From a virus (taxonomy: Duplodnaviria > Caudoviricetes): a DNA stretch of 55,640 nt. Below the pieces are notes generated by a model. The model did no database searches, had not been told where the DNA came from, and saw only the letters and a program-made list of their open reading frames with translations. This document shows positions 941 to 42,114 of the stretch, piece by piece (the stretch's first letter is position 1; every line of letters starts with the position of its first letter). The DNA is taken from IMG/VR virus record IMGVR_UViG_3300014711_000002, positions 1 through 55,640 of that record. One strand, 5' to 3'. Position numbers and translations under genes: made by a program.

Positions 941-2029
941 ATGAAAAGACTTCCACGATTCAGCGAGAAGCGCGGCACCAGCAAGAGCGGCAAGGAGTGG
1001 GTGGCCTATTACCACACGCCCAAGATCGACGGCAAGGTGAAGTGGCACCCGCTTGGCAACAACCGTTCAGCCGCCCTGCGCAAGTGGGCCGAGCTGGAGG
1101 GCAAGGCCACCCCCAACGAGGCAGGCACCTTCAACGCAGTGGCCGACCAGTACATGGCCTGGGCCGAGGCCGAAGTGGTCAGCGGCGAGCTGGCCCCCCG
1201 CACGATTGCCGACCGCAAGAAGTACCTCAAGGTCATGCGCCCCGTGTTCGGTCCGCACCCGTTCGACGCCATCAAGCCGTCTGCCGTTGTGACCTACCTA
1301 GACGTGCGCGGCAAGACGTCAAAACACAGCGCCGGGCAGGAGCTGCGGTTCTTGTCGGCCATGTGGAACTGGGCAAAGCAGCGAGACATGGTCACAACCA
1401 TCAACCCTGTCACGGGGACCAGACTGCCCGGCACCGGCAACCGCATGATTGAGGTGCGACCACAGGACTATTGGCTGGTCCACGGATGCGGTGACCAGAT
1501 GGTCAAGGACGTCATGGAGCTGGCCGCCCGGCTGGGCACGCGCCCGCAGGAAGTGTTTGGCCTGACGTGGGGCAAGGTGGATCTCAGCGCCAGCCCGATG
1601 ACCGTCAAGGTTTGGATGAACAAGACCACCGGCTTCAAGATCGTCGTTGCAGACGCCGAACTCGAGGCGCTGATTCAGCGCCTACGTGGCGGCAAGGACA
1701 AGCCCAAGGGGCATGTGCTGACCGACGAAGATGGCAAGCCCCTGAACCCCGTGGGGGCCTTCCGCTACCGCTTCGCTGCAGCCAGGACCGCAGCACTCGC
1801 AAAGGCCAAGGAGGCCGACGTCGAGCACCAAGACTTCCAGCTGCGCGACCTGCGCCCGATGGCCGGGCTGGCCATGCTGGATGCCGAGGGCATGGATGCC
1901 GCGCGCCGCCTGCTTGGCCACACCACCGAGCGCATGACTTCACACTACACCACAGTGCGTCGAGGGTTTGTCAGCAATGCAGCCGCAATCAAAAAAGTTA
2001 GAAGTACTTCTAACCCTTCACAAGAGTGA
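941..2029 (+). CDS. int: Tyrosine integrase
   Basis: GTRPQE (Arg I), FQLRDLR (H-x-x-R box with Arg in place of His), LLGH...MT.HY catalytic Tyr; adjacent to attP. Confidence 0.95.
   Translation: MKRLPRFSEKRGTSKSGKEWVAYYHTPKIDGKVKWHPLGNNRSAALRKWAELEGKATPNEAGTFNAVADQYMAWAEAEVVSGELAPRTIADRKKYLKVMRPVFGPHPFDAIKPSAVVTYLDVRGKTSKHSAGQELRFLSAMWNWAKQRDMVTTINPVTGTRLPGTGNRMIEVRPQDYWLVHGCGDQMVKDVMELAARLGTRPQEVFGLTWGKVDLSASPMTVKVWMNKTTGFKIVVADAELEALIQRLRGGKDKPKGHVLTDEDGKPLNPVGAFRYRFAAARTAALAKAKEADVEHQDFQLRDLRPMAGLAMLDAEGMDAARRLLGHTTERMTSHYTTVRRGFVSNAAAIKKVRSTSNPSQE
1997..2014. repeat. Perfect palindrome GTTAGAAGT-ACTTCTAAC; probable integrase arm-type sites (third copy 2239-2247)
   Basis: AAAAAGTTAGAAGT occurs on both sides of the att core. 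Confidence 0.7.
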
Positions 2030-2062
2030 AGCTACAATGTCGCTGCAACCTGTTGATTTTGC

Positions 2063-2110
2063 TGGAGGCGGGGGTCGGAATCGAACCGGCGTACACGGAT
2101 TTGCAGTCCG
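2063..2110 (-). other. attP core: 3' half of tRNA-Cys(GCA), not a full tRNA
   Basis: Minus strand reads CGGA-CTGCAAA-TCCG-TGTAC-GCCGG-TTCGATT-CCGAC-CCCCGCC-T-CCA (anticodon arm, T arm, acceptor 3' strand, CCA). D arm and 5' acceptor strand are missing. 34 bp downstream of int. Confidence 0.92.
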
Positions 2111-2261
2111 TCGCAGAAACACGCCGCAAACCCAGTGTTCATGCGGGTCTCGAGAGAATCGAGCCCCTTGATCACATCTAAATTATCACAATGATTGTGG
2201 GCTGGCGACCCGCATGAATGCTCAACAACCGCCAAAAAGTTAGAAGTGAAAAGGAACCACC

Positions 2262-2504
2262 ATGACTGAAGCAGCACAACGAGAAATGACCTACGGCGAG
2301 AAGGCCGTCGGCCTGACCTTCAACCCCAGCAACGACGACGCCGTGGCCCAGTGCAAGGCTGAGTTTGCCCGCGTCATCGACCGCATGAACGACCTGCGCG
2401 CCTCGACCGACAACGCCGAGGTCAAGCGCATGGCCAGCGTCGCCATCACCGAAGCCCAGACCGCCCAGATGTGGGCCGTCAAAGCCATCACTTGGAGGGG
2501 CTGA
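2262..2504 (+). CDS. Acb2/Tad1-like helical-hairpin protein (putative cyclic-nucleotide sponge)
   Basis: GE..VG..FNPS....V...K...A..ID...E..R..S.A.T..Q.A.MWAVKA pattern recognised from memory; AAGGA RBS. Confidence 0.6.
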   Translation: MTEAAQREMTYGEKAVGLTFNPSNDDAVAQCKAEFARVIDRMNDLRASTDNAEVKRMASVAITEAQTAQMWAVKAITWRG

Positions 2505-2506
2505 GC

Positions 2507-2926
2507 ATGAACAGCGAACAAATTGCACGCGTGTGCCACGAGGTCAACCGCGCCTACTGCCAAGCCCTCGGCGACATGAGTCAGCCCGCATGGGAAGACG
2601 CGCCGCAGTGGCAAAAGGACAGCGCCCTTCTGGGGGTCAAGCTGCACACCGAAAAGAACGTCGGCCCCGAGGCCAGCCACCAGAGCTGGATGGCGCAGAA
2701 GGTATTGGATGGCTGGGTGTACGGGCCTGAGAAGAACGCCGAAGCCAAGACCCACCACTGCATCGTCCCGTTTGCTGATCTGCCACGCGAGCAGCAGGCC
2801 AAGGACTTCATCTTCCGCGCCGTAGTGCATGCACTGCGTGCAACAGCGCCAGCCGACGACAACGACTTCCAGCTGGGCAAGGCCTGCGACCTGTCCGGCG
2901 AAGGAACCTGCGAGGCCTGCCAATGA
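2507..2926 (+). CDS. RyR-domain protein with C-terminal acidic ..ACDLSGEGTCEACQ tail
   Basis: H..W...K..DGW.YG..K....KTH.C.VPF..LP..Q..KD is the RyR repeat signature; GGAGG RBS. Confidence 0.85.
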   Translation: MNSEQIARVCHEVNRAYCQALGDMSQPAWEDAPQWQKDSALLGVKLHTEKNVGPEASHQSWMAQKVLDGWVYGPEKNAEAKTHHCIVPFADLPREQQAKDFIFRAVVHALRATAPADDNDFQLGKACDLSGEGTCEACQ

Positions 2927-3243
2927 GCGGCACCACCGTCTACAGCATCGCCAACGTGCAGCACGCACTGCAGGCGCTCAAAGAAAAGATCGAGCCCCAC
3001 AAGTGGGCCGAGACACCGCTCCCCGTCATCGCCGCCCCGGGCTGGTGGATGGAGGAGATCCGCAAGGAGATGGGCATCGAGGAAGGCTTTGAGCCGGGCG
3101 AGATCCACGGGTGCCACGTCACCCGCATGGATCACCTGACAGAGCCGTTCCTCGTAGACCACGACGGGAAGATGTACCCAATCCTGCCCCAATGGCTGCG
3201 GGCCAAGCAAACTGCGGAAGCAGAGAAAGGCGAGACAGAATGA
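2923..3243 (+). CDS. Hypothetical protein
   Basis: ATGA-coupled to both neighbours; phage-like codon usage. Confidence 0.7.
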   Translation: MSGTTVYSIANVQHALQALKEKIEPHKWAETPLPVIAAPGWWMEEIRKEMGIEEGFEPGEIHGCHVTRMDHLTEPFLVDHDGKMYPILPQWLRAKQTAEAEKGETE

Positions 3244-3410
3244 GCAAAGCAACAGTGATATTTGAAGACGAAGGCGACGGCGTCAACATCCGAATCGAGT
3301 TCGGTGATGAGGGAGGCCAAGAGACAAGCGGCGCGCACCAGATGGCGGCTTTGGCTGTCCGGTTGGTGTCCGAGCGGGTCGGCAGCATGGAACAGGGGGA
3401 GCAGGAATGA
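3240..3410 (+). CDS. Hypothetical protein (56 aa)
   Basis: ATGA overlaps on both sides. Confidence 0.6.
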   Translation: MSKATVIFEDEGDGVNIRIEFGDEGGQETSGAHQMAALAVRLVSERVGSMEQGEQE

Positions 3411-3961
3411 GCATGTCAAAAGAACCTTTCGGCTATTTCAAAGCCGAGCCATTTGGCTGGACCGACTGCGCCCCAAACGAAGAGGGCGCGGTGGCCTTGT
3501 ACGAAAAATCTGACCTGACCAACTACCAGCGCACGGCCAATTGGCTGAAGGCGTGCGGCAAGGAGCCAAACCCCGAGGACCTGGTGGTCCAGATTGGCTG
3601 CCACATCGAGGAGCTGTGCGAGTTCCTGCAGGTGCTGCGCACCGACAAGGAAGGCTACGCCAAGCTGCTGGACCGAACCCGTGTGGACCTTGAGTGGTTT
3701 GCCAGCAAACTCAAGCGCCGGGAGGTGACGGTCTACATCCCCACCCACCTGCGCACCGATGCGCTGGATGCCCTGTGCGATGCCGAGGTGACCGGCAACG
3801 GCGTGGCCTACCTTGCCGGGTTTGACAAGGACGGTGCTGACCAGGTCGTGCTGGCCAGCAACGAGGCCAAGCTGGTGGATGGCAAGCCCGTCATCCTTGA
3901 GGGCGGCAAGATCGGCAAGCCGGACGGGTGGAAGGCACCGGACTTGAGGGGGTTTGTATGA
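3407..3961 (+). CDS. MazG-like / PRA-PH family NTP pyrophosphohydrolase
   Basis: IEELCE...LDALCD..V...G......D.......V..SN..K..DGK......GKI.KP.GW..PDL. Confidence 0.85.
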   Translation: MSMSKEPFGYFKAEPFGWTDCAPNEEGAVALYEKSDLTNYQRTANWLKACGKEPNPEDLVVQIGCHIEELCEFLQVLRTDKEGYAKLLDRTRVDLEWFASKLKRREVTVYIPTHLRTDALDALCDAEVTGNGVAYLAGFDKDGADQVVLASNEAKLVDGKPVILEGGKIGKPDGWKAPDLRGFV

Positions 3962-4116
3962 GACCCGACGCCAAGCAAGAGCGCCGCGTGCTGACGTTCT
4001 TTGCCGTGCTGGCGGCCGTCATTGTGCTGACCTTGGCGCACGGGTTCTACACTGGCGAGCTCAAGTTCCACATGGGCAAGGGCTGCGTCGAAGAACACTG
4101 CGAACCAGACCAGTAA
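3958..4116 (+). CDS. Small membrane protein
   Basis: One hydrophobic helix; ATGA overlap. Confidence 0.55.
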   Translation: MRPDAKQERRVLTFFAVLAAVIVLTLAHGFYTGELKFHMGKGCVEEHCEPDQ

Positions 4117-4118
4117 AG

Positions 4119-4138
4119 AGGGGGCCAATCGGCCCCCT
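4119..4138. terminator. Probable bidirectional terminator between the convergent arms
   Basis: AGGGGGCC-aatc-GGCCCCCT hairpin between stops at 4116 and 4141. Confidence 0.8.
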
Positions 4139-4140
4139 TC

Positions 4141-7100
4141 TTACTTTGGCACCACGCGCAGGTACTCGCGGTTCATGTCGGTGGCCAGCTTGTCACGCTC
4201 CACCTGCAGGCGCTGCCTTTCCAGTGCCTTCTCAGGCTTGGTCATCTTCTCGTCCTTGATGATGTCCAGCTCTGCCTTGCGGATCATGGACGACTGGCGC
4301 TGATAGGTCTCCTGCATTCTGGCCAAGCTCAACAAGCGCTCATCGTCGCCGCTCAGCTCGGGGTCCAGGCCCAGCTTCTGCTGCGCCTTCACCTCGCCCG
4401 CCAGTTTCTTAATTTTGTCCATGCGCTCGCGGGCGGTCTGGGTATTCGCGCCTTCGTCCACCTCGCCGTAGAACTTGTTCAAAAATGGGATCTTGTTCGC
4501 CTTCAGGTCCTTGTCGTCGCCGGTCATGGCCATCACAGCCGTACCCACCTGCTCCACAAAGGTGCCCAGGCCGCCCGTGGTGGCGCTGATCAGGGTCTGG
4601 ATGGTGCCAGGTGCCACCGAAGTGTCCATTCCCAGGATCGACCCAGCCTTGCCTTCGTTGCCACCGCCCAGCTCGTTGAGTGCCTTGGCAATCTTGGCCG
4701 ACACAGAGTCCTGCTGGCTGGTGAACATCCGTTCTGAATCTGGCCTGACATCCCACGGCGACTTGAACGGCGACGAGGCGGAGCCAAACGTGTTGCGCTC
4801 GTTGACGATCTGGATCGGCAGGTCAGCCAATGTTGGCATGGCCGCCAGCAGAACCTGCACGCCGTCGGACAAGTCCACCGCGCCGCCGAATGGGTTGACC
4901 GAGCCGAACACCGTGGACGTCATGTGCAGGGCCGCCTTGGTGGGCGTCATGCCACGCTTGGGGTCGGCCTGGTTGCGCAGGACATCGGCCATGGTGTAGC
5001 CGAGGTTGGGGAAGATGTTGAAGCCGTACTGCACGGGGATCGTGACGTAACGGCCACGCTTGCCAGCGCGCTTGATGCCACCAGCTAGGGCATCGCCCGG
5101 TGGCAGCATGATCACCATGTTGCGTTCCTTGATGTAGCTGGGGATCTTGTCCCAGTAGGCCTCGCCGTCGTCGTCTTCGCCGCCAGCGGATGCACCGTAC
5201 AGGGCCAGCATCATGCCGATACCGGCCACGCCCGCCATGGACGCCTGCACCGCTGGGCTCTTGAGCACCACCTTGAAAAGCTGGGCGTTGCCCTGCACAC
5301 CGGCGTTGAAGAACAGGTACAGGTTGTTCAGCGCGCCACCCCATTCACCCTTACGGTTGAAGTTGGTGGTGCCGTCTTTCGCCAAGATCGCCGCCTTGGC
5401 CGGGCTGTTGCCCACCTCGCGGGACGCCTGGTACAGCGCAAAGCGGGTGGCGTTCTCGGACGCAGCGCCCATGAACTCCAGCATCTTGAGCGTCATCTTG
5501 GCCAGCTTGAACGGGGGCAGTGTATTGACCTTCTCCCACGGTGTGCGGGCAGACGCGCCAGCCAGCAGCAGTTCGTTGCGCAGCTCTTGGTTGATGTCGT
5601 CCAGCGTGCGCATGAAGAAGCCGCCCGTGATACCGCCAGCAGAGCGGAACTCCTTGAACCGGGCGTCCATCACAGGGTTGCCAAACAGCTTGTTGCTTGT
5701 GCCGGCCACGCCCGCCTCTTGGCGGGTCGATGCCATGAGCGCCTTGGGGTAGGCGGCCAGGTATTTGGCCAAGCCCTTGGGACCCAGCTCGGCCAGAGCC
5801 GAAGCGGTGCCGGACCACAGCGCATCGCGTGGGATGTTGATCAGCGCAAAGGCCGGGTTGTACTTGGTCAGCACGGCGCGCAGCCAGTTGTTCCACCAGC
5901 CGGTCATGGCCAGCGTCGCCCGCTCCAGCCCGCTCGTCTCATCCTTCCATGCTTGGCGCAGGGCCCGGGTCAGTTCCTTGTCGGCGAACTTGATGTACAC
6001 CTGCTGGCCGCCGACCTTCACGCCGATGGTGTCCTCGCCCTTCTCGATGGACTTGGTGTACTGCACGGTGCCCTGGGCCTTGTTGAAGCTCGGCTTGCTG
6101 CGCTCCACATCCACGCCCCACAGGTCGGGGTCTGGGTTGGACAGCACGAAGTCCAGCAGCACCTTGGCCACATCGTTCTTCTCGACCCGGGCGACTACGC
6201 GCTCGTAGTCGCGGATCACGTTTTCGATCAGGTCACCCGCCCGGGACTTGCGGCCCATGGCGCGGACAGTCTCAGCGCCGCGCACGTTCACGCCACGGCC
6301 AACACCGGGCCGGGCCACGCCGGTTTCCTCGTCCACGTTCTCGAAGCCACGCAGCGGGATGTAGTTGTCGTATGCACCCTCGAGCGTAGTGAACTCGTCG
6401 GGGGTGATCAGACCCTCGGACAGCATCACTTGGCGCGTGGCCGACGTGATGCCCATCAGAGCCTGGTGCAGCTCCTCGAACTGCGCTTCCTTGCCCTCGG
6501 CCTTCGCCTTGGCGATGACCGCATCGGCGTCAGCGTTGGTCATGCCGGAGCCGCCATCGGGCAGGCGCGGATTGATGCTGGCGATGTAGGCGTTGCGCTC
6601 CTTGGCGTGCTTGGCGTAGGCGTACACGGACAGCTCGTCCATGTCGATGCCGAACTCAGCGGCCTTGTCCAGCATGGGGCGCACGACGTCGTTCTTGAAG
6701 TCGTCGATGGCCGCCTGAATGCGACCGGGCATCAGCGTGTTGGCGTCGTAGAAGTTCTGCGCTTCACCGACGGTGCCGCCCTTGGCCTTGACCGCCTCAA
6801 TCACGCGCTTCATGCGCAGGCCGTCATCCTGCAGCTTGATGCGGGCAGCGTCGATGTTGCTGGTGGCAGGCACCTCGAAGTTGGAGCCGATCAGTTTCTG
6901 GCGGGGGATGGAGCGGTTGCTGAAGCGGATGTCCGGGTCAGCAGGATCGAATTCACCGCTGTTGCCGGTGGCGGATTTGATTTGCTCGGGGCGGAAGGCC
7001 ACGATCTCGTAGCCGCCATCGTACATCACGCCGTCATAGCCAGCCTTCTGCAGGTTGTCGCTGAACTTTTGCGCCACATCTGAGTTGCGCTCGACTGCCA

Positions 7101-36782: not shown

Positions 36783-36812
36783 ATAATAACAGCATAGTGA
36801 TAGTTGAGTCAA
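36783..36812 (-). promoter_or_regulatory. Promoter TTGACT-18-TATTAT with operator 36787-36802
   Basis: Near-consensus boxes overlapping the portal stop codon. Confidence 0.75.
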
Positions 36813-39037
36813 ATGCCGCTTCCGGTGCGCGCCTTCATCGCCATTTCTGCGGAGAAGATTTGCCGCTCAGAATCGAGCTTGATCAGCTCTAAACGTTCCT
36901 TACGTGCCAGTTCCTCGCGCGTCATCTGGCCGTCTGCCTCCATCTTTGCAACAGCCAACTCTCGTTGGAACTGCAAATCCAGCATATTCTGCTCTGACTC
37001 AGCGCGCTCACGCTCAATCTGGTAAGCCGTGTTCTGCTGCTTGACATCGAGCTCGGCTTGTGAAAGTTGAGACTCGACTTGAAGCTGTTGCTGACGCGCC
37101 TGCAAATCCATCTCCCTTGCTTTTAGGTTCATTTCCGCGACAGCAATTCTTGGATCTTGTGGCGCGCCCTGCTCTGCTTGAGCTTGCTGCTCTTGGGCCA
37201 CTTGATCCTCGGGCTTCATCAGTTCCTCGGGGTTGACCTTGAACGCTTTGAGGATGGCCGTCAGTTCTGCGCGCTCCTTCAGGTGCGGGATGTAGCGCGG
37301 ATTGTTGGTGATGTTTGCCAAGTTCAGAAGGGCCTGATTCTGGATGTCGCGCTCAATCAGCGCCGTGCTGCCCCGGGCGTCAATCTCGTAGTCGCCCTTA
37401 ATCTTGGGGTCTGGGTCGTTGGCCATTTTCCAGTCGTAGTACCGGGCCAGATGCGGGCGAGTGATGCCATCGTCGTAGAGCTTCACGCGCTGACGCAGCA
37501 CTTGGTTGGCGTTGTTGTACAGCATGACCATGCCCCCCACGGTCTCAGGCGCACTGCCCTTCTCGCCGCCCATGAGCTGGGGCATGCCGGTCTCCATGTC
37601 GGAAAACTGCATGGCGGCCTGCGCGATGGCCAGCAGCTCCTGCAGGTGCGAGTTGAACTCAAACACGCTGAACGCTTGGCGCACGTCGGCCAAGTCGTCT
37701 TTGGCCAGCCAAATCTTGTTTGGCGTGATCTCCCACGAGTTGTTTTGAGGAATGACCATGCCCTTCTTCATGACGATCTGGCCACCCAGCGAGGTGCGGC
37801 CGTTGTCCATGACCTGACGCCAGGCGCTGTTGACCACACGCTGCTGGTGCTCCAGTTCGTCGGGCAGTCCGTAGCCAAACGGGGAGTCGTCGGACTTGCG
37901 CCAGTTCCAGACATCGACGGGTAGGGTGTGATCTGGCACCCATGACTCCATGGCCCCGATGATCTTGTCGTTGACGATGACCAGCACGGCAAACGTGACG
38001 TCCGTCAGCGGGTCACCTGACCGGCTTGACAGCAGCTCCATTTCATCAGGCTCAATCTCGCCGTGGTAGGTCCACATCTCGTAGGCGTCTTCCTTGACGG
38101 TGTCGCGCAGCACGCGCTGCTCTGCCACGCGCACGCGATTTGGCTCTTGGCGCAGGACTTCGCGGATGCACTCGGCATCGAAGCCGGGAAGGCCCACAAG
38201 CTGGCGCAACTCCTTGCGAGTCACATTGCGCCGGAAAAAGAAACCACGGCCACGCTGGTGATCGTTTGCGCACGATGGATCAAAGAAAGTGTCCCACGGG
38301 TCCAGTCGCATGGATGCGGGCACGATGGACTCGTTGATCTGCATGGCCTGCGTGCCGTCCGGTTGCGGGAGCCACGCCTTGCTGGTCTGGCGTGCAGGGA
38401 ATGGGCCGTACATGACCATGCTGCCCAGACGCACGCCGTCTTCGATGCCTTTACGACATTCGCCGTTGTACTTGCACTCGGTCAGGCTGTCATCAATAGA
38501 TCGCTCCATGGCCTCGGCCGCATCCTTGGCGGCCTTCATGACAAACTTGGCCTCGTCATTGGCGGTCATGCCGGTGGGCTGGCCGGTGCGGGGGTCCACG
38601 GTTGGCGTCTCATTGCCAACCATGGCCGCCATGTCGGGAAGCGGTGTGGGCTTTAGACCCCAGTTGCGATCATCGACGGGAAACAGAATCTCGCACATGC
38701 GGGCCACGGCCTGATCGACCTTGGGGCGAACGATGTTGATCACCACGCGGGACCGATTGCCATCTTGAGACTTGCGCGCAGGTGGCCCGTTGCGCAGCGT
38801 GTTCTCGAATTCGCCGGTGCTTTCCGTGCGCTCGCCAAAGTAAAGTTGCGCGTTGCGCCTCCAGCGTTTTTCGACGTCGCCGGTGGCGCGATGCTGAACC
38901 CACTGGTCACGCATCTTGGTGAACATGCCATGCAGTTTTTCAACCTCTGACTTCTTCATCTCGCCGTACTGGTCCTGCGTCATCATCTGGCCATCCATCT
39001 CGATGGCCGTGTCTGGTGGGAAGTCGTTTTGGTTCAT
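36809..39037 (-). CDS. Portal protein
   Basis: 742 aa after TerL; FG.G.P...Q...N...R...DN...GE...TVGG..ML; Gln-rich C-terminal barrel like P22-type portals. Confidence 0.9.
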   Translation of the reverse strand: MNQNDFPPDTAIEMDGQMMTQDQYGEMKKSEVEKLHGMFTKMRDQWVQHRATGDVEKRWRRNAQLYFGERTESTGEFENTLRNGPPARKSQDGNRSRVVINIVRPKVDQAVARMCEILFPVDDRNWGLKPTPLPDMAAMVGNETPTVDPRTGQPTGMTANDEAKFVMKAAKDAAEAMERSIDDSLTECKYNGECRKGIEDGVRLGSMVMYGPFPARQTSKAWLPQPDGTQAMQINESIVPASMRLDPWDTFFDPSCANDHQRGRGFFFRRNVTRKELRQLVGLPGFDAECIREVLRQEPNRVRVAEQRVLRDTVKEDAYEMWTYHGEIEPDEMELLSSRSGDPLTDVTFAVLVIVNDKIIGAMESWVPDHTLPVDVWNWRKSDDSPFGYGLPDELEHQQRVVNSAWRQVMDNGRTSLGGQIVMKKGMVIPQNNSWEITPNKIWLAKDDLADVRQAFSVFEFNSHLQELLAIAQAAMQFSDMETGMPQLMGGEKGSAPETVGGMVMLYNNANQVLRQRVKLYDDGITRPHLARYYDWKMANDPDPKIKGDYEIDARGSTALIERDIQNQALLNLANITNNPRYIPHLKERAELTAILKAFKVNPEELMKPEDQVAQEQQAQAEQGAPQDPRIAVAEMNLKAREMDLQARQQQLQVESQLSQAELDVKQQNTAYQIERERAESEQNMLDLQFQRELAVAKMEADGQMTREELARKERLELIKLDSERQIFSAEMAMKARTGSGI

Positions 39038-39046
39038 GGTGTTCTT

Positions 39047-41530
39047 TCAATAACCTGAGATTTGGTCGATAGCGGCCCACGCATGCTCGGAGCCGGTGGG
39101 CACTTCCCACACGTCGTCTTCGTCGGGCCAAGGTAGCGCAAGCGATGGTTCATCCAGTCGGGCCAGCGCGTCCATGCCGTCGTCGTAGCGCCCCACGGGA
39201 AACGTGGAGTACTCGACGTCGATCAAGTCTTGCACCAGGTCACGCTCGACCTCTTGTTGGTCGGTGTACTTGAGCTGCTGCGGAAACCACATGCGGCCGC
39301 CCTCAAACCACGGGATCAAGCGGCGAATGCGTGCGTTCTTTTCGACAGCACCGGCAACCTCGTGGATCTTGAATCGGTACTGGCGCTGCTCCATCTCGTG
39401 CTGGATGTGGGCGATGTCGCCCATCATTCCGTATCGCTCGTACCGCACTTGCATCGGCTTGTGCTTTTTGTGCAGGGCAAACAGCTTGTCGGCGCGCTGC
39501 GTCAGGCCCAAGCGGTCGACGACGCCATCCACCAGGTAGGCGTTGCCGTCGGAGGCCAGTCCAACCACCCACATGACGGTGCGGTCGGACTTCTTGCGCT
39601 TGTTGGTGCCGGACTTGCTGGGATCTCCAGCCGGGTCAACCAAGATGATCTTGTTCATCTTCTTTGGCGACACGTTGTAGCGGCTGATCCATGAGCGCTT
39701 GAACTCGGCACCCTCAAGCGGTCGCGGCTCCTGCTGGTACAGCGAGATCCACGAGCGAGGGTCCGACTGCGCTTGCAGCACCATGGCGTCAGTGAACCAT
39801 TCTTTCCACAGGCGCTCGCCTGGTTCGCGGCCAAGCGGGTCGTGCTCTCCGGCGATCATTGGCAGCTTGATGACCTTCCATCGCTGCGGCTCGCGCTCGA
39901 GCAAACGTCCGGCCAAGTCGTCTTCGTGCCAGCGGGTCATGATGACCACGATGCGGCCGCCCGGCTTCAGGCGGGTCAGCAGGTCGTTGGTCCACCACTC
40001 CCAGGTCTTCTCGCGCACGCGGTCGCTGTCTGCGTCCTCGCGGCTTCGCACCGGGTCATCGACGATGATGCAGTTGTGGACAAGGATATCGTTGGCGAAA
40101 AAGTTGTGCGCGCCATCGACCTCTATGTCGTAAACATCGACTCCCTGCTTGCAGCGTACTCGCTCAACCATGGAAACAAAATCAAGCGACGTCGACTCTT
40201 TTCCATCGCATGAAGTTGTTCGTGGCAAGATCTGCACAAAGTCACCAGGTTCTCGTGCCGGTTGTCCAGCGGATCCATGTTGATGTGATGGCACTGCAAA
40301 TCGTTCGGCGAGTTGCACGCCACGCACATTGCCGAATCCTTTTCGGTCACCAGTTTCTTGGCCGCAAGAAAGATGCGTTTCTGCGCGTGCCGCTCCCGCT
40401 TGGGCGTAACCCCACCCTTCCATGTGGGGTTGTTCTGCTGCTGCATGGTCATGGAGTGCAGATCGTTCTTGCACTTCATTGAGCAGCATTTCGACGGCAG
40501 GCTGTTGGTCCTTGGTCTGTATGTCTTGCCGCACACAACGCAGCTCTGCTCCTGAACCGTCCTGCGCCGCAAGCCAGCCCTGGCCGCTATCGCAAGTCGA
40601 CACGGCTCCGAGCATGACCGCGCTTTGTTCTGAGTCGGCGCTCCGCAATGGTTGCACGTCGAAAACAGACGCATCCCGCGCTTGGCATTGTTCATGCGAG
40701 TCGCGCAGTTGAGACTGCACGCCGGCACGTATCCCGCGTTGACCCTGACCTTCTTTGCCAGCTCGAACGATTCCCTGCTGGCCATTTTCCCGCAGCACCC
40801 GCATGAGAACGTCACCCGCAACAAGGGCCGAAGTCTCTTTCCAAACCCCGTTGACAAAGACTCGATGATTTCCCGTTGCTTCAACCACACATCCAGCGGC
40901 AGTTCGTACTCGGAAATACTCGTCTGCCTTGCGTTGAGCGACAGCAACAACTCGGCGATAGGTTGGGCGATTTTGGTATTGCGAGAGGACATACTGGCCG
41001 GGCTTTACTTGGTCAATTCGGACCGGCCCATTGTATGTCATCACCATAGTGTTGCCTAGCAAACAATCGCCACGTCGGCCAGTGATAGAGCCGCCCACAC
41101 CGACGGCGGTGTACTCGCCGCCCTGGTTTGTTCCCCAGCGGCCAGCGGCCGTGCTGTCAGCGGCAAGCGTGACGTTAAACAGATTCTTGAACTGGACGTC
41201 GTCTACGCCGTTACGCACCCTGCGGCCAAAGCGTTCGGCCAACTCAGCAGTGTGCGAGGCGGCGATGATTGAAAGCTGCGGGTTCCGGCCTGCAAAGTAC
41301 TCGGGGAAATAGACCGACCCGTAGGTGGACTTGGCGGAACCGGGCGGCATCATCACCAGCAAGCGGTCGCACTCACCCTTCTCCACTTCGTCCAGCGCTT
41401 TGGTCAGCAGTTCGTGGTGCGGAGCCAGTGTCATGTCCTCGGGCAGCCGGTAGCGGCAGTACTCGGTGAACGTCTCGCGTGCAGCACGACGTGCCAACAG
41501 CTCAAGGGCGGCGTCGGCTGGCGTGATCAC
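39047..41530 (-). CDS. terL: Terminase large subunit with a 331-aa intein (mature protein ~496 aa)
   Basis: MPPGSAKS Walker A; GGSITGRRGD/CIIVDDP Walker B split by the intein; IMTRWHEDDL; nuclease VDPA...FP.G.YDD..DA. Confidence 0.96.
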   Translation of the reverse strand: MITPADAALELLARRAARETFTEYCRYRLPEDMTLAPHHELLTKALDEVEKGECDRLLVMMPPGSAKSTYGSVYFPEYFAGRNPQLSIIAASHTAELAERFGRRVRNGVDDVQFKNLFNVTLAADSTAAGRWGTNQGGEYTAVGVGGSITGRRGDCLLGNTMVMTYNGPVRIDQVKPGQYVLSQYQNRPTYRRVVAVAQRKADEYFRVRTAAGCVVEATGNHRVFVNGVWKETSALVAGDVLMRVLRENGQQGIVRAGKEGQGQRGIRAGVQSQLRDSHEQCQARDASVFDVQPLRSADSEQSAVMLGAVSTCDSGQGWLAAQDGSGAELRCVRQDIQTKDQQPAVEMLLNEVQERSALHDHAAAEQPHMEGWGYAQAGAARAETHLSCGQETGDRKGFGNVRGVQLAERFAVPSHQHGSAGQPAREPGDFVQILPRTTSCDGKESTSLDFVSMVERVRCKQGVDVYDIEVDGAHNFFANDILVHNCIIVDDPVRSREDADSDRVREKTWEWWTNDLLTRLKPGGRIVVIMTRWHEDDLAGRLLEREPQRWKVIKLPMIAGEHDPLGREPGERLWKEWFTDAMVLQAQSDPRSWISLYQQEPRPLEGAEFKRSWISRYNVSPKKMNKIILVDPAGDPSKSGTNKRKKSDRTVMWVVGLASDGNAYLVDGVVDRLGLTQRADKLFALHKKHKPMQVRYERYGMMGDIAHIQHEMEQRQYRFKIHEVAGAVEKNARIRRLIPWFEGGRMWFPQQLKYTDQQEVERDLVQDLIDVEYSTFPVGRYDDGMDALARLDEPSLALPWPDEDDVWEVPTGSEHAWAAIDQISGY
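40073..41065 (-). mobile_element. Intein in TerL (Cys156-Asn486, +1 Cys)
   Basis: Block A CLLGNTMV; block B ATGNHRV; block F VYDIEV..AHNFFAN; block G ILVHN/C. Confidence 0.96.
40123..40992 (-). CDS. Zinc-finger HNH endonuclease nested in the +1 frame of the TerL intein (true start uncertain, ~40992-40785)
   Basis: Three CxxC...CSxxC repeats, NNPTWKGG, CVAC...HHINMDPLDNRHENLVTLCRSCHEQLH. Confidence 0.88.
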   Translation of the reverse strand: MSSRNTKIAQPIAELLLSLNARQTSISEYELPLDVWLKQREIIESLSTGFGKRLRPLLRVTFSCGCCGKMASRESFELAKKVRVNAGYVPACSLNCATRMNNAKRGMRLFSTCNHCGAPTQNKARSCSEPCRLAIAARAGLRRRTVQEQSCVVCGKTYRPRTNSLPSKCCSMKCKNDLHSMTMQQQNNPTWKGGVTPKRERHAQKRIFLAAKKLVTEKDSAMCVACNSPNDLQCHHINMDPLDNRHENLVTLCRSCHEQLHAMEKSRRRLILFPWLSEYAASRESMFTT

Positions 41531-42036
41531 TTGGCCTGCTCCTTGGCGGCCTTTGCCGCGATCTCCAGCAGTTGCTCATCAGTCATGGCCAGCAGCTTGA
41601 CCGGACCGCCATTGGCCCCCGTCAGCTCCACCTTGGACTTGTCGCCATAGGCAGAGGCGTGCAGCTTCGCGGCCACCTTCAGGTTCACGTCCGCAGCCAG
41701 TCTCAGGCCAGCAGCGTCACCCAAAGCAGCGGCTGTACGGCCATAGTCCAGCGCAGCATCGACCAGGTTGTGCGCTCTCTCGATGCCAGCGGTGGCGTAC
41801 TGTTCGCGGGTTTCTTCGCTGTCCATCAAGATTTGGCGCAGCTTCCACCCGGCAACTTTGAACGGCAGCGTGTCAGCAATTGCTTGGAGCGACTCGCCCC
41901 AAACGTAGCGGTCAAATATCTCGTCAGCGACGAACAGGACCTCGGCCTTTAGCTGCTCGGCGGCGGTGCGCTCGGGCTTCTTGTGCAAGGCGTAGGTGTC
42001 TTTCGTGTCGCGCTTGGTCTTTTTGTGCTCGGTCAT
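41527..42036 (-). CDS. terS: Terminase small subunit
   Basis: GESL..I...Y..A...A...AAKL....YGDK..VELTGANGGP; overlaps the terL start. Confidence 0.88.
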   Translation of the reverse strand: MTEHKKTKRDTKDTYALHKKPERTAAEQLKAEVLFVADEIFDRYVWGESLQAIADTLPFKVAGWKLRQILMDSEETREQYATAGIERAHNLVDAALDYGRTAAALGDAAGLRLAADVNLKVAAKLHASAYGDKSKVELTGANGGPVKLLAMTDEQLLEIAAKAAKEQAK

Positions 42037-42114
42037 GGGTGGTTGGCGGGTGGCCCCTCGACATCTCACCTCGCTGGGAGACGATCAGGTTGGCAAGCGC
42101 CGGGGGCCGTAAAT

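Follow-up and report, generated by a model that had tools for sequence, protein, structure and literature searches.

The window analysed here is a stretch of 55,640 bases of viral DNA (IMG/VR virus record IMGVR_UViG_3300014711_000002, positions 1 to 55,640; Caudoviricetes), with a record completeness of 98%. On its minus strand lies the gene for the large terminase subunit (TerL), which is interrupted by an intein, and within the intein, on the same strand and in the +1 frame, lies a second open reading frame (ORF) that encodes a zinc-ribbon protein with an HNH endonuclease fold (Table 1). Each frame is maintained by its own kind of selection, and the element occurs sporadically among relatives.

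Class 1 inteins carry an N-terminal Cys or Ser, a TxxH motif in block B, a C-terminal His-Asn pair and a nucleophile at the +1 position. All of these are present in TerL of the window (C156, the T-G-N-H residues of VEATGNH, H485-N486 and C487), and the Pfam family Intein_splicing matches the protein at 45.2 bits, above its cut-off of 35.8, so that the canonical intein proposed by a sequence-only reading of the locus stands. The intein spans C156 to N486 and is inserted directly before the Walker B acidic residues. Its removal would leave a contiguous host protein of 827-331 = 496 residues, the exact length of the intein-less proteins P0154 and P0155 (496 aa), which read GRRGD/LIVVDDP straight across the site (P-numbers denote database proteins or clusters, L-numbers DNA loci from viral or metagenome contigs and phage records). 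Given the intact motifs and the essential role of TerL, the intein probably splices out of the precursor. Between its splicing lobes the TerL frame encodes a linker that had been described, from the letters alone, as disordered in appearance and lacking a LAGLIDADG or HNH motif. In agreement with this description, a Pfam search of the linker returned no family match, and in an AlphaFold model of the frame-0 intein, built from a five-row alignment, the lobes reach predicted local distance difference test (pLDDT) scores of 85-92 and the 194 residues between them (intein residues 94-287) stay below 50. A group I intron or a programmed bypass was also considered and dropped, since no stop interrupts the TerL frame and every intein motif is preserved.

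The nested ORF starts 538 nucleotides into terL (41530-40992), an offset that corresponds to the +1 frame. The sequence-only reading had described it as 289 codons (40992-40123) with three zinc fingers, an NNPTWKGG motif and an HNH core, ending at a TAG within the block-F codons of the intein, and this description is accurate in every part: the product carries three CxxC...CxxxC pairs, NNPTWKGG and a core of the form CxxC..HH..N..CxxCH..H, and the TAG is seen where it was placed. An alignment with 22 homologues, which are 26-52% identical to the window protein, contains 25 invariant columns, including all zinc-binding Cys and the HNH His and Asn residues. The AlphaFold model based on this 22-row alignment has a mean pLDDT of 86.3, and its residues 195-289 superpose (VIA-align) on IscB with a Z of 8.6 and a root-mean-square deviation of 2.4 over 72 aligned residues, as well as on EcoKMcrA (Z 7.9), ScoMcrA (Z 7.4) and the GVE2 HNH protein (Z 7.1). 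An HNH fold whose catalytic residues are intact is thereby shown for the +1 protein, a predicted nuclease.

Table 1. Coordinates of the terL intein, the nested HNH ORF and associated features in the window
Feature	Positions	Strand	Basis or remarks
TerL precursor ORF	39047..41530	minus	GTG start, 827 aa, stop included; Pfam Terminase_6N and Intein_splicing; C-extein 72-94% identical to 32 TerL clusters
N-extein, residues 1-155, ending ...SITGRRGD	41066..41530	minus	Alignment with intein-less alleles
Intein, 331 aa, Cys1...His-Asn, followed by Cys+1	40073..41065	minus	Intein-less alleles read GRRGD/LIVVDDP across the site
Intein N-terminal splicing lobe, residues 1-93, blocks A and B (VEATGNH)	40787..41065	minus	pLDDT 85-92; conserved columns
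TerL-frame linker, intein residues 94-287, without predicted fold, kept open	40205..40786	minus	pLDDT <50; stop avoidance; +1 frame is the core of the HNH protein
Intein C-terminal splicing lobe, residues 288-331, blocks F and G (...NFFANDILVHN)	40073..40204	minus	pLDDT 84-90; conserved columns
C-extein, starting CIIVDDP (Walker B region), with stop codon	39047..40072	minus	Alignment with intein-less TerL
+1-frame ORF, 289 codons plus TAG, zinc-ribbon HNH endonuclease (activity predicted)	40123..40992	minus	ORF list; homologues; alignment; AlphaFold
Three zinc ribbons of the +1 protein (C64/C67+C92/C96, C113/C116+C127/C131, C151/C154+C170/C174)	40471..40803	minus	All Cys invariant, 22/22
HNH core of the +1 protein (C223, C226, H235, H236, N248, C253, H257, H261)	40210..40326	minus	All invariant, 22/22
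First ATG of the +1 ORF, candidate start	40990..40992	minus	Weak Shine-Dalgarno, -1.7 kcal/mol; fold and substitutions give a hint that the protein includes the N-terminal extension
GTG four codons before the first zinc Cys, alternative candidate start	40813..40815	minus	Formed by TerL-frame GGT GAC (Gly-Asp)
Sigma-70-like promoter match, TAGGCA-17-TACAAT, in block A codons	41030..41058	minus	About 38 nt upstream of the first +1 ATG; 1 found against 0.2 expected
Small terminase subunit gene	41527..42069	minus	Pfam Sf6_terminase, 37.6 bits (cut-off 27); 3' end overlaps the TerL start by 4 nt

Selection on the two frames was assessed in DNA aligned by means of the HNH protein, with differences counted per codon position between the splicing lobes. 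In the closest pair, formed by Brucella phage Tb (L006) and a metagenome contig (L025), the differences at positions 1, 2 and 3 of the HNH codons number 40, 30 and 93, with an identity of 0.78 in the HNH frame and of 0.41 in the TerL frame. The same third-position excess is found between the viral contigs L004 and L005 (68/54/113; identities 0.60 and 0.34), between the window and L004 (79/66/102; 0.52 and 0.31) and between the window and L005 (66/59/112; 0.53 and 0.30). For L006 and L025, nonsynonymous divergence (dN) in the TerL frame, at 0.41, exceeds synonymous divergence (dS), at 0.19, and the HNH frame shows a dN of 0.16 with saturated dS; because the NG86 estimate of dS in the HNH frame is undefined through saturation in five of six pairs, no dN/dS ratio is given for that frame.

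The linker reading of the TerL frame is protected in a different way. A TerL-frame stop arises only where an HNH codon ends in T and the next codon starts with AA, AG or GA, and in the window none of the 57 codons able to end in T in this context does so (0/57), compared with 40 of 170 elsewhere. When the synonymous codons of the +1 protein are resampled in an exact calculation, the TerL frame of the window has a probability of 1.9e-4 of being stop-free by chance, with 7.7 stops expected, and this probability falls to between 7e-11 and 2e-14 at five other related loci. Across these six loci, whose GC content is 0.43-0.56, the expected number of stops ranges from 7.7 to 24.3; as the loci that share the +1 nesting span GC contents of 0.45-0.66, GC-rich DNA alone does not explain the open frames. 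Together, the third-position bias and the stop avoidance therefore indicate that the HNH frame is selected for its protein and the TerL-frame linker just to stay open. The sequence-only reading had anticipated both outcomes, namely an off-frame openness beyond chance and a linker constrained only against stops; its central proposal of a nested overlapping HNH gene in a mini-intein-like splicing domain is borne out by these patterns, by the residues invariant in 22/22 homologues and by the frame-specific folds. Such openness comes nearly free for the host frame, since stops are removable at synonymous sites of the nuclease.

These patterns also bear on the idea that the +1 ORF is a decaying, non-functional relic of a once in-frame endonuclease. 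Loss of the endonuclease belongs to the homing cycle, mini-inteins exist at this very site, and in Brucella phage Tb the first zinc-knuckle Cys codon has become a stop, all of which would suit a relic. However, the window retains all zinc and catalytic residues, none of which varies among the homologues, variation peaks at HNH-frame third positions, and a fully in-frame relative of the zinc-ribbon HNH was not encountered among the 25 family sequences read. A search of longer proteins for in-frame HNH fusions (243 candidates, none significant) adds weak evidence. Decay is thus a very improbable account of the ORF.

The nested layout recurs well beyond the window. Against phage records, the +1 protein matches 41 Brucella phage records (E 1e-24), with 32% identity over residues 15-261. 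The GenBank annotation of Brucella phage Tb (NC_019446) lists terL as 'intein present' at 2347-4893 and a nested 'putative HNH endonuclease' at 3170-3856, whose offset of 823 again gives the +1 frame. Nesting in this frame under an annotated terL is also found in Ralstonia phage RS-CA1, Gordonia phage Clown and Synechococcus phage S-EIVl, and the +1 offset is common to the window, L004, L005, L006 and L025, the HNH proteins of L004 and L005 being 50-51% identical to that of the window. Further inteins with an HNH ORF in the +1 frame, for which the sequence-only reading had suggested a search, are thus present in these phages as well as in metagenome contigs. A megablast of terL against phage records returned no match, and a pattern scan of viral contigs with the single +1 protein yielded four pattern matches, none of which was confirmed, after which an alignment query succeeded. 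A profile search with the HNH family retrieved 45,072 cluster representatives at E <=0.001, and at least about 40 of the best 150 family members carry a +1-frame imprint of intein blocks, a rough, protein-level lower bound obtained with self-written patterns. The few published cases therefore probably understate by far how common the layout is. In Brucella phage EF4 (MT002975.1), the HNH match falls into three pieces and terL is annotated as two coding sequences, suggesting frameshifts in the record or its assembly.

Recurrence speaks against the concern that an assembly or sequencing artefact, in the form of two compensating indels, masks an HNH intein of the usual in-frame type. The sequence of the window comes from a metagenome assembly and was compared with contigs only, not with raw reads. 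A second assembler gave an identical sequence: the Logan contig of the single run that contains the stretch agrees with it over 39900-41200 with no differences and no gaps, although this is weak support because that run may be the source sample. However, the same offset is found in cultured phages from several groups and in independent metagenome contigs, and codon choice in the TerL frame shows long-term stop avoidance. Because at least seven independently sequenced lineages share the offset, two compensating indels, against which the sequence-only reading had itself cautioned, are excluded, and an artefact can be set aside with hardly any reservation.

The distribution of the intein is that of a mobile element. 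In a search with the C-extein, all clusters at 72-94% identity (32/32) are 492-499 aa long, a length that implies the lack of an intein, and the cluster of the window is the sole intein bearer at that level. Likewise, the site is uninterrupted in 24 of the 26 viral-contig loci examined, the remaining two being a partial locus without the region and the L005 contig. Mini-inteins from which the nuclease region is cleanly gone occupy the same site in P0186 (636 aa) and P0241 (643 aa), and a full-size intein of the same kind is found there in P0198 (833 aa), whose exteins are 0.58-0.68 identical to those of the window and whose intein is no closer to it than that of L004. Between the window and L004, identity is 0.29-0.41 in the exteins, 0.49-0.66 in the intein lobes and 0.51 in the HNH protein. 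Two 100%-complete intein-less relatives have no HNH homologue anywhere. Scattered presence of this sort is the pattern of a homing element, and the nuclease would be expected to cleave the intein-less allele and so to promote homing. Moreover, as mini-inteins occupy the same site, an origin by invasion of a mini-intein is plausible.

Other inteins occur in related terminases. P0209, P0213 and P0216 (60-66% C-extein identity) have an empty Walker B site and a LAGLIDADG intein of about 330 aa at Walker A (PPGSAK/A...HN/S), and P0240 and P0245 show the LAGLIDADG-intein pattern at Walker A by length and precomputed Pfam matches only. Beside terL in the window, a 742-aa ORF (36809-39037, minus strand) lies directly downstream, in the usual portal position, and has no Pfam match at E <=0.01.

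HNH proteins of the HK97 gp74 type are said to be associated with the terminase in packaging (work credited to Kala et al. 2014). This raises the possibility that the nested HNH is such a packaging helper, merely located in the intein, and not a homing endonuclease. The position of the gene inside terL would fit this role, and a functional link between HNH and terminase is raised by PMC4422536 (citing Kala et al., 2014). However, the lack of the HNH in the two complete intein-less relatives argues against a packaging factor and for a homing endonuclease, and the HNH is accordingly not an accessory gene conserved in related phages with the same terminase. In line with this argument, mini-inteins at the same site have lost the HNH, a related zinc-finger nuclease ORF is nested alike in the clamp-loader intein of L024, and a related HNH core lies in frame in ThyX inteins. 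A packaging function is quite unlikely in view of these data.

The HNH is probably translated separately from TerL, as the arrangement of stops and starts at related loci suggests. Both L024 and L006 have a stop in the +1 frame with a start codon close behind it: an ATG preceded by a strong Shine-Dalgarno sequence (-11.6 kcal/mol) in L024, and a GTG preceded by AAAGGAGAAG (-7.5 kcal/mol) in L006. The first Cys codon of zinc knuckle 1 in Brucella phage Tb is a TGA stop (L002:2648-2650), and the annotated HNH starts just downstream at a GTG; L025, unlike Brucella phage Tb, keeps the knuckle-1 Cys (SCANCG) and an ORF open upstream. The Shine-Dalgarno sequence of L004 reaches -6.9 kcal/mol, and those of L005, L025 and the window are weak near the first zinc knuckle. 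Since C64 and C67 of this knuckle are invariant (22/22), the start in the window must lie upstream of it, with GTG 40815 and ATG 40992 as candidates. At the column of GTG 40815, the 22 homologues have Val in 18 cases, Met in one, Leu in one and Ala in two.

Several signals favour the upstream ATG 40992. Across intein codons 30-93, no stop interrupts the +1 frame of the window, L004 or L005 (chance 0.07-0.18 each), and pLDDT exceeds 90 for +1 residues 10-47. Substitutions favour no codon position within intein codons 29-89 and 288-310, whereas intein codons 1-28 and 311-330 show a frame-0 third-position excess and the linker a +1-frame third-position excess. Additionally, a sigma-70-like promoter match lies in the block A codons, and its position is kept in L004 (9/12) and L005 (11/12) and absent in L006 and L025; the match is a hint only, because its bases are also constrained by block A. 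These signals are leads and not findings, being confounded by the constraint on intein codons and by small numbers. Tentatively, and with the odds leaning the other way, the nested gene could form a complete expression unit, with a promoter in block A (41030-41058), a start at ATG 40992, an N-terminal domain of about 50 residues over block B and a last helix over block F. If so, across about 85 codons the same bases would specify two different folded proteins.

A number of observations weigh against a separately expressed homing endonuclease. The Pfam families HNH_3 (19.8 bits) and HNH (16.9 bits) stay below their cut-offs (24.8 and 21.4) and match over just 27-40 residues, and a Foldseek search of the +1 model against the PDB gave no match at E <=0.001, all E values being 0.028 or higher. 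The five DNA sequences compared are not independent samples, and pairs at 50% identity are synonymously saturated. The intein is sporadic among relatives of the window but fixed in all 41 Brucella phage records, so that homing need not be ongoing in every lineage. No RNA runs are listed with the stretch, and the runs X2 and X3 contain next to none of its sampled words. The Shine-Dalgarno sequences of all start candidates in the window are weak (-1.7 to -5.9 kcal/mol). Finally, two database proteins, P0031 (605 aa) and P0051 (444 aa), hold the TerL N-extein and the intein N-lobe in one frame with the zinc-ribbon HNH and end in ...SSTTA, a C-terminus that equals the +1 reading of the intein C-terminus. 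These proteins could be indel variants, assembly errors or a split-intein-like arrangement, and they make a fused product possible in some lineages.

The last two of these points would also be expected if the HNH arose through programmed +1 frameshifting of ribosomes that read the TerL/intein frame, yielding a fusion of N-extein, intein N-lobe and HNH, and so would the stretch of about 60 stop-free +1 codons across the intein N-lobe of the window, L004, L005 and L025. However, the +1 stops of L006 and L024 stand just upstream of a Shine-Dalgarno sequence and start and leave 6-7 codons for a shift, the possible positions of a shift in the window are restricted by four +1-frame stops within roughly the first 20 intein codons, and no conserved slippery site was seen, although no search was aimed at one. 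Frameshifting is therefore an unlikely route to the HNH protein.

All evidence considered, we estimate at roughly 85% the probability that the window carries a mobile intein in a phage terL whose homing endonuclease is a separate overlapping gene. Under this explanation, frame 0 would be translated into the 827-aa TerL precursor, in which intein lobes 1-93 and 288-331 fold together and the 194 residues between them form an unstructured loop. Self-excision of the intein through Cys1, the block B TxxH, His-Asn and Cys+1 would leave a TerL of 496 aa that reads GRRGD-CIIVDDP. From the +1 frame would come a product of 230-289 aa that combines three zinc ribbons with an HNH nuclease domain, most likely through a translation start of its own, either on the terL transcript or on one made from a promoter in the first intein codons. 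During co-infection with a relative whose terL site is empty (GRRGD/LIVVDDP), the nuclease would cut or nick that site, and repair would then copy the intein together with the nuclease gene into it. The locus thereby offers a clean and quantifiable case of a selfish nuclease gene and a self-splicing element sharing the same DNA, and it supports the view that inteins gain endonucleases by invasion of free-standing genes. A further implication is that inteins of this kind will be mistaken for decaying or endonuclease-less ones by gene callers and in intein surveys.

The novelty implied by the sequence-only reading does not hold, as the arrangement is already in print and the window is a further member of a brucellaphage-type lineage. 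In addition to the GenBank annotation of Brucella phage Tb, a brucellaphage terL intein with an HNH was mentioned in passing in 2015 (PMC4422536). Inteins with endonucleases in another frame or on the other strand are treated as a class by the Gogarten laboratory, and its preprint proposes invasion by free-standing endonuclease genes (bioRxiv 10.1101/2025.01.02.630785). The present analysis adds the stop-avoidance figures, the segment-wise switch in selection, the steps of the homing cycle represented around this terL, and pointers to a promoter and an N-terminal module.

The closest known counterparts are brucellaphages Tb and Pr (Perisivirus; NC_019446 F354_gp07 and F354_gp08), which share with the window the host gene, the insertion site before (I/V)(I/V)(I/V)DDP, the +1 offset, an intein length of 331-332 aa and a homologous zinc-ribbon HNH (32% identity, E 1e-24). 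In both Brucella phage Tb and the window the insertion falls between ...R(G/A)D and C(I/V)I(I/V)DDP, whereas the exteins are just 0.34-0.41 identical. The two also differ at the 5' end of the HNH gene: in Brucella phage Tb the first knuckle Cys is a stop and a GTG start has a strong Shine-Dalgarno sequence, whereas the window keeps the knuckle and about 60 upstream codons. Members of the class defined in bioRxiv 10.1101/2025.01.02.630785 are similar in having the endonuclease out of the intein/extein frame, often in a TerL host, with an in-frame reading that lacks recognisable structure. The window differs in its frame, which is +1 (frame 2), and in its nuclease, a zinc-ribbon HNH; Gordonia phage Clown is of this +1 HNH type.

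Another example is the cyanobacterial dnaX intein, for which a 2026 preprint describes an overlapping endonuclease together with a per-frame selection analysis. As in the window, an endonuclease ORF overlaps the intein, dN/dS differs between the frames, with low values for that of the endonuclease and raised ones for that of the intein, and the distribution is sporadic with mini-inteins; unlike in the window, the host is a cellular dnaX, the endonuclease is of the LAGLIDADG type and the frame is '+2ORF'. Nesting without an intein is known from the ShiLan element, an out-of-frame HNH inside the gene of a phage DNA methylase (PMC11855218; Arsenault et al., Genes 2025). The likeness lies in an HNH nested out of frame under an open host frame, with HNH translation likewise a question there; the differences are the lack of an intein splicing domain and an offset of +2 in three cases (L032, L033 and L097). 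Because there is no splicing domain, the host protein retains the off-frame reading as a loop. The three loci (L032:2-940; L033:984-3209; L097:913-3237, Mycobacterium phage Mantra gp64) have +2-frame HNH ORFs in DNA methyltransferase genes with an open host frame; no intein blocks were seen in them, the insert of Mantra is flanked by repeated EP(V/I)VVARKP, and they match the ShiLan element of PMC11855218.

Inteins can associate with nucleases in further ways. ThyX inteins, located after RHR(I/L/M)ASY (L031, L039, L043, L044 and L046), have an in-frame HNH whose NPMW(K/R)GG motif and core are related to those of the nested HNH. They resemble the window in this NP(M/T)W(K/R)GG motif and HNH core between the lobes (31-36% identity over about 85-90 residues) and differ in that the intein polypeptide itself includes the HNH, ahead of which lies a helix-turn-helix-like segment (by our own reading of the sequence) in place of zinc ribbons. 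So-called fractured genes, reportedly described by Dassa et al. in 2009, are split inteins whose two halves flank a free-standing gene for a Vsr-like endonuclease. These share with the window a free-standing endonuclease gene in place of an intein endonuclease domain, but their host frame is broken and the intein acts in trans, whereas in the window the host frame runs through and the intein is contiguous. Lastly, L024 has a clamp-loader-like AAA+ gene (1894-3927; Pfam DNA_pol3_delta2 and AAA) with an intein at VVILDE/C...HN/CHLLS, within which a +1 ORF (2486-3193) encodes two CxxC zinc fingers, NNPMWKDG and a DUF559 (Vsr-like) nuclease domain. Compared with the window, the nesting is the same, whereas both the host gene and the nuclease domain differ.

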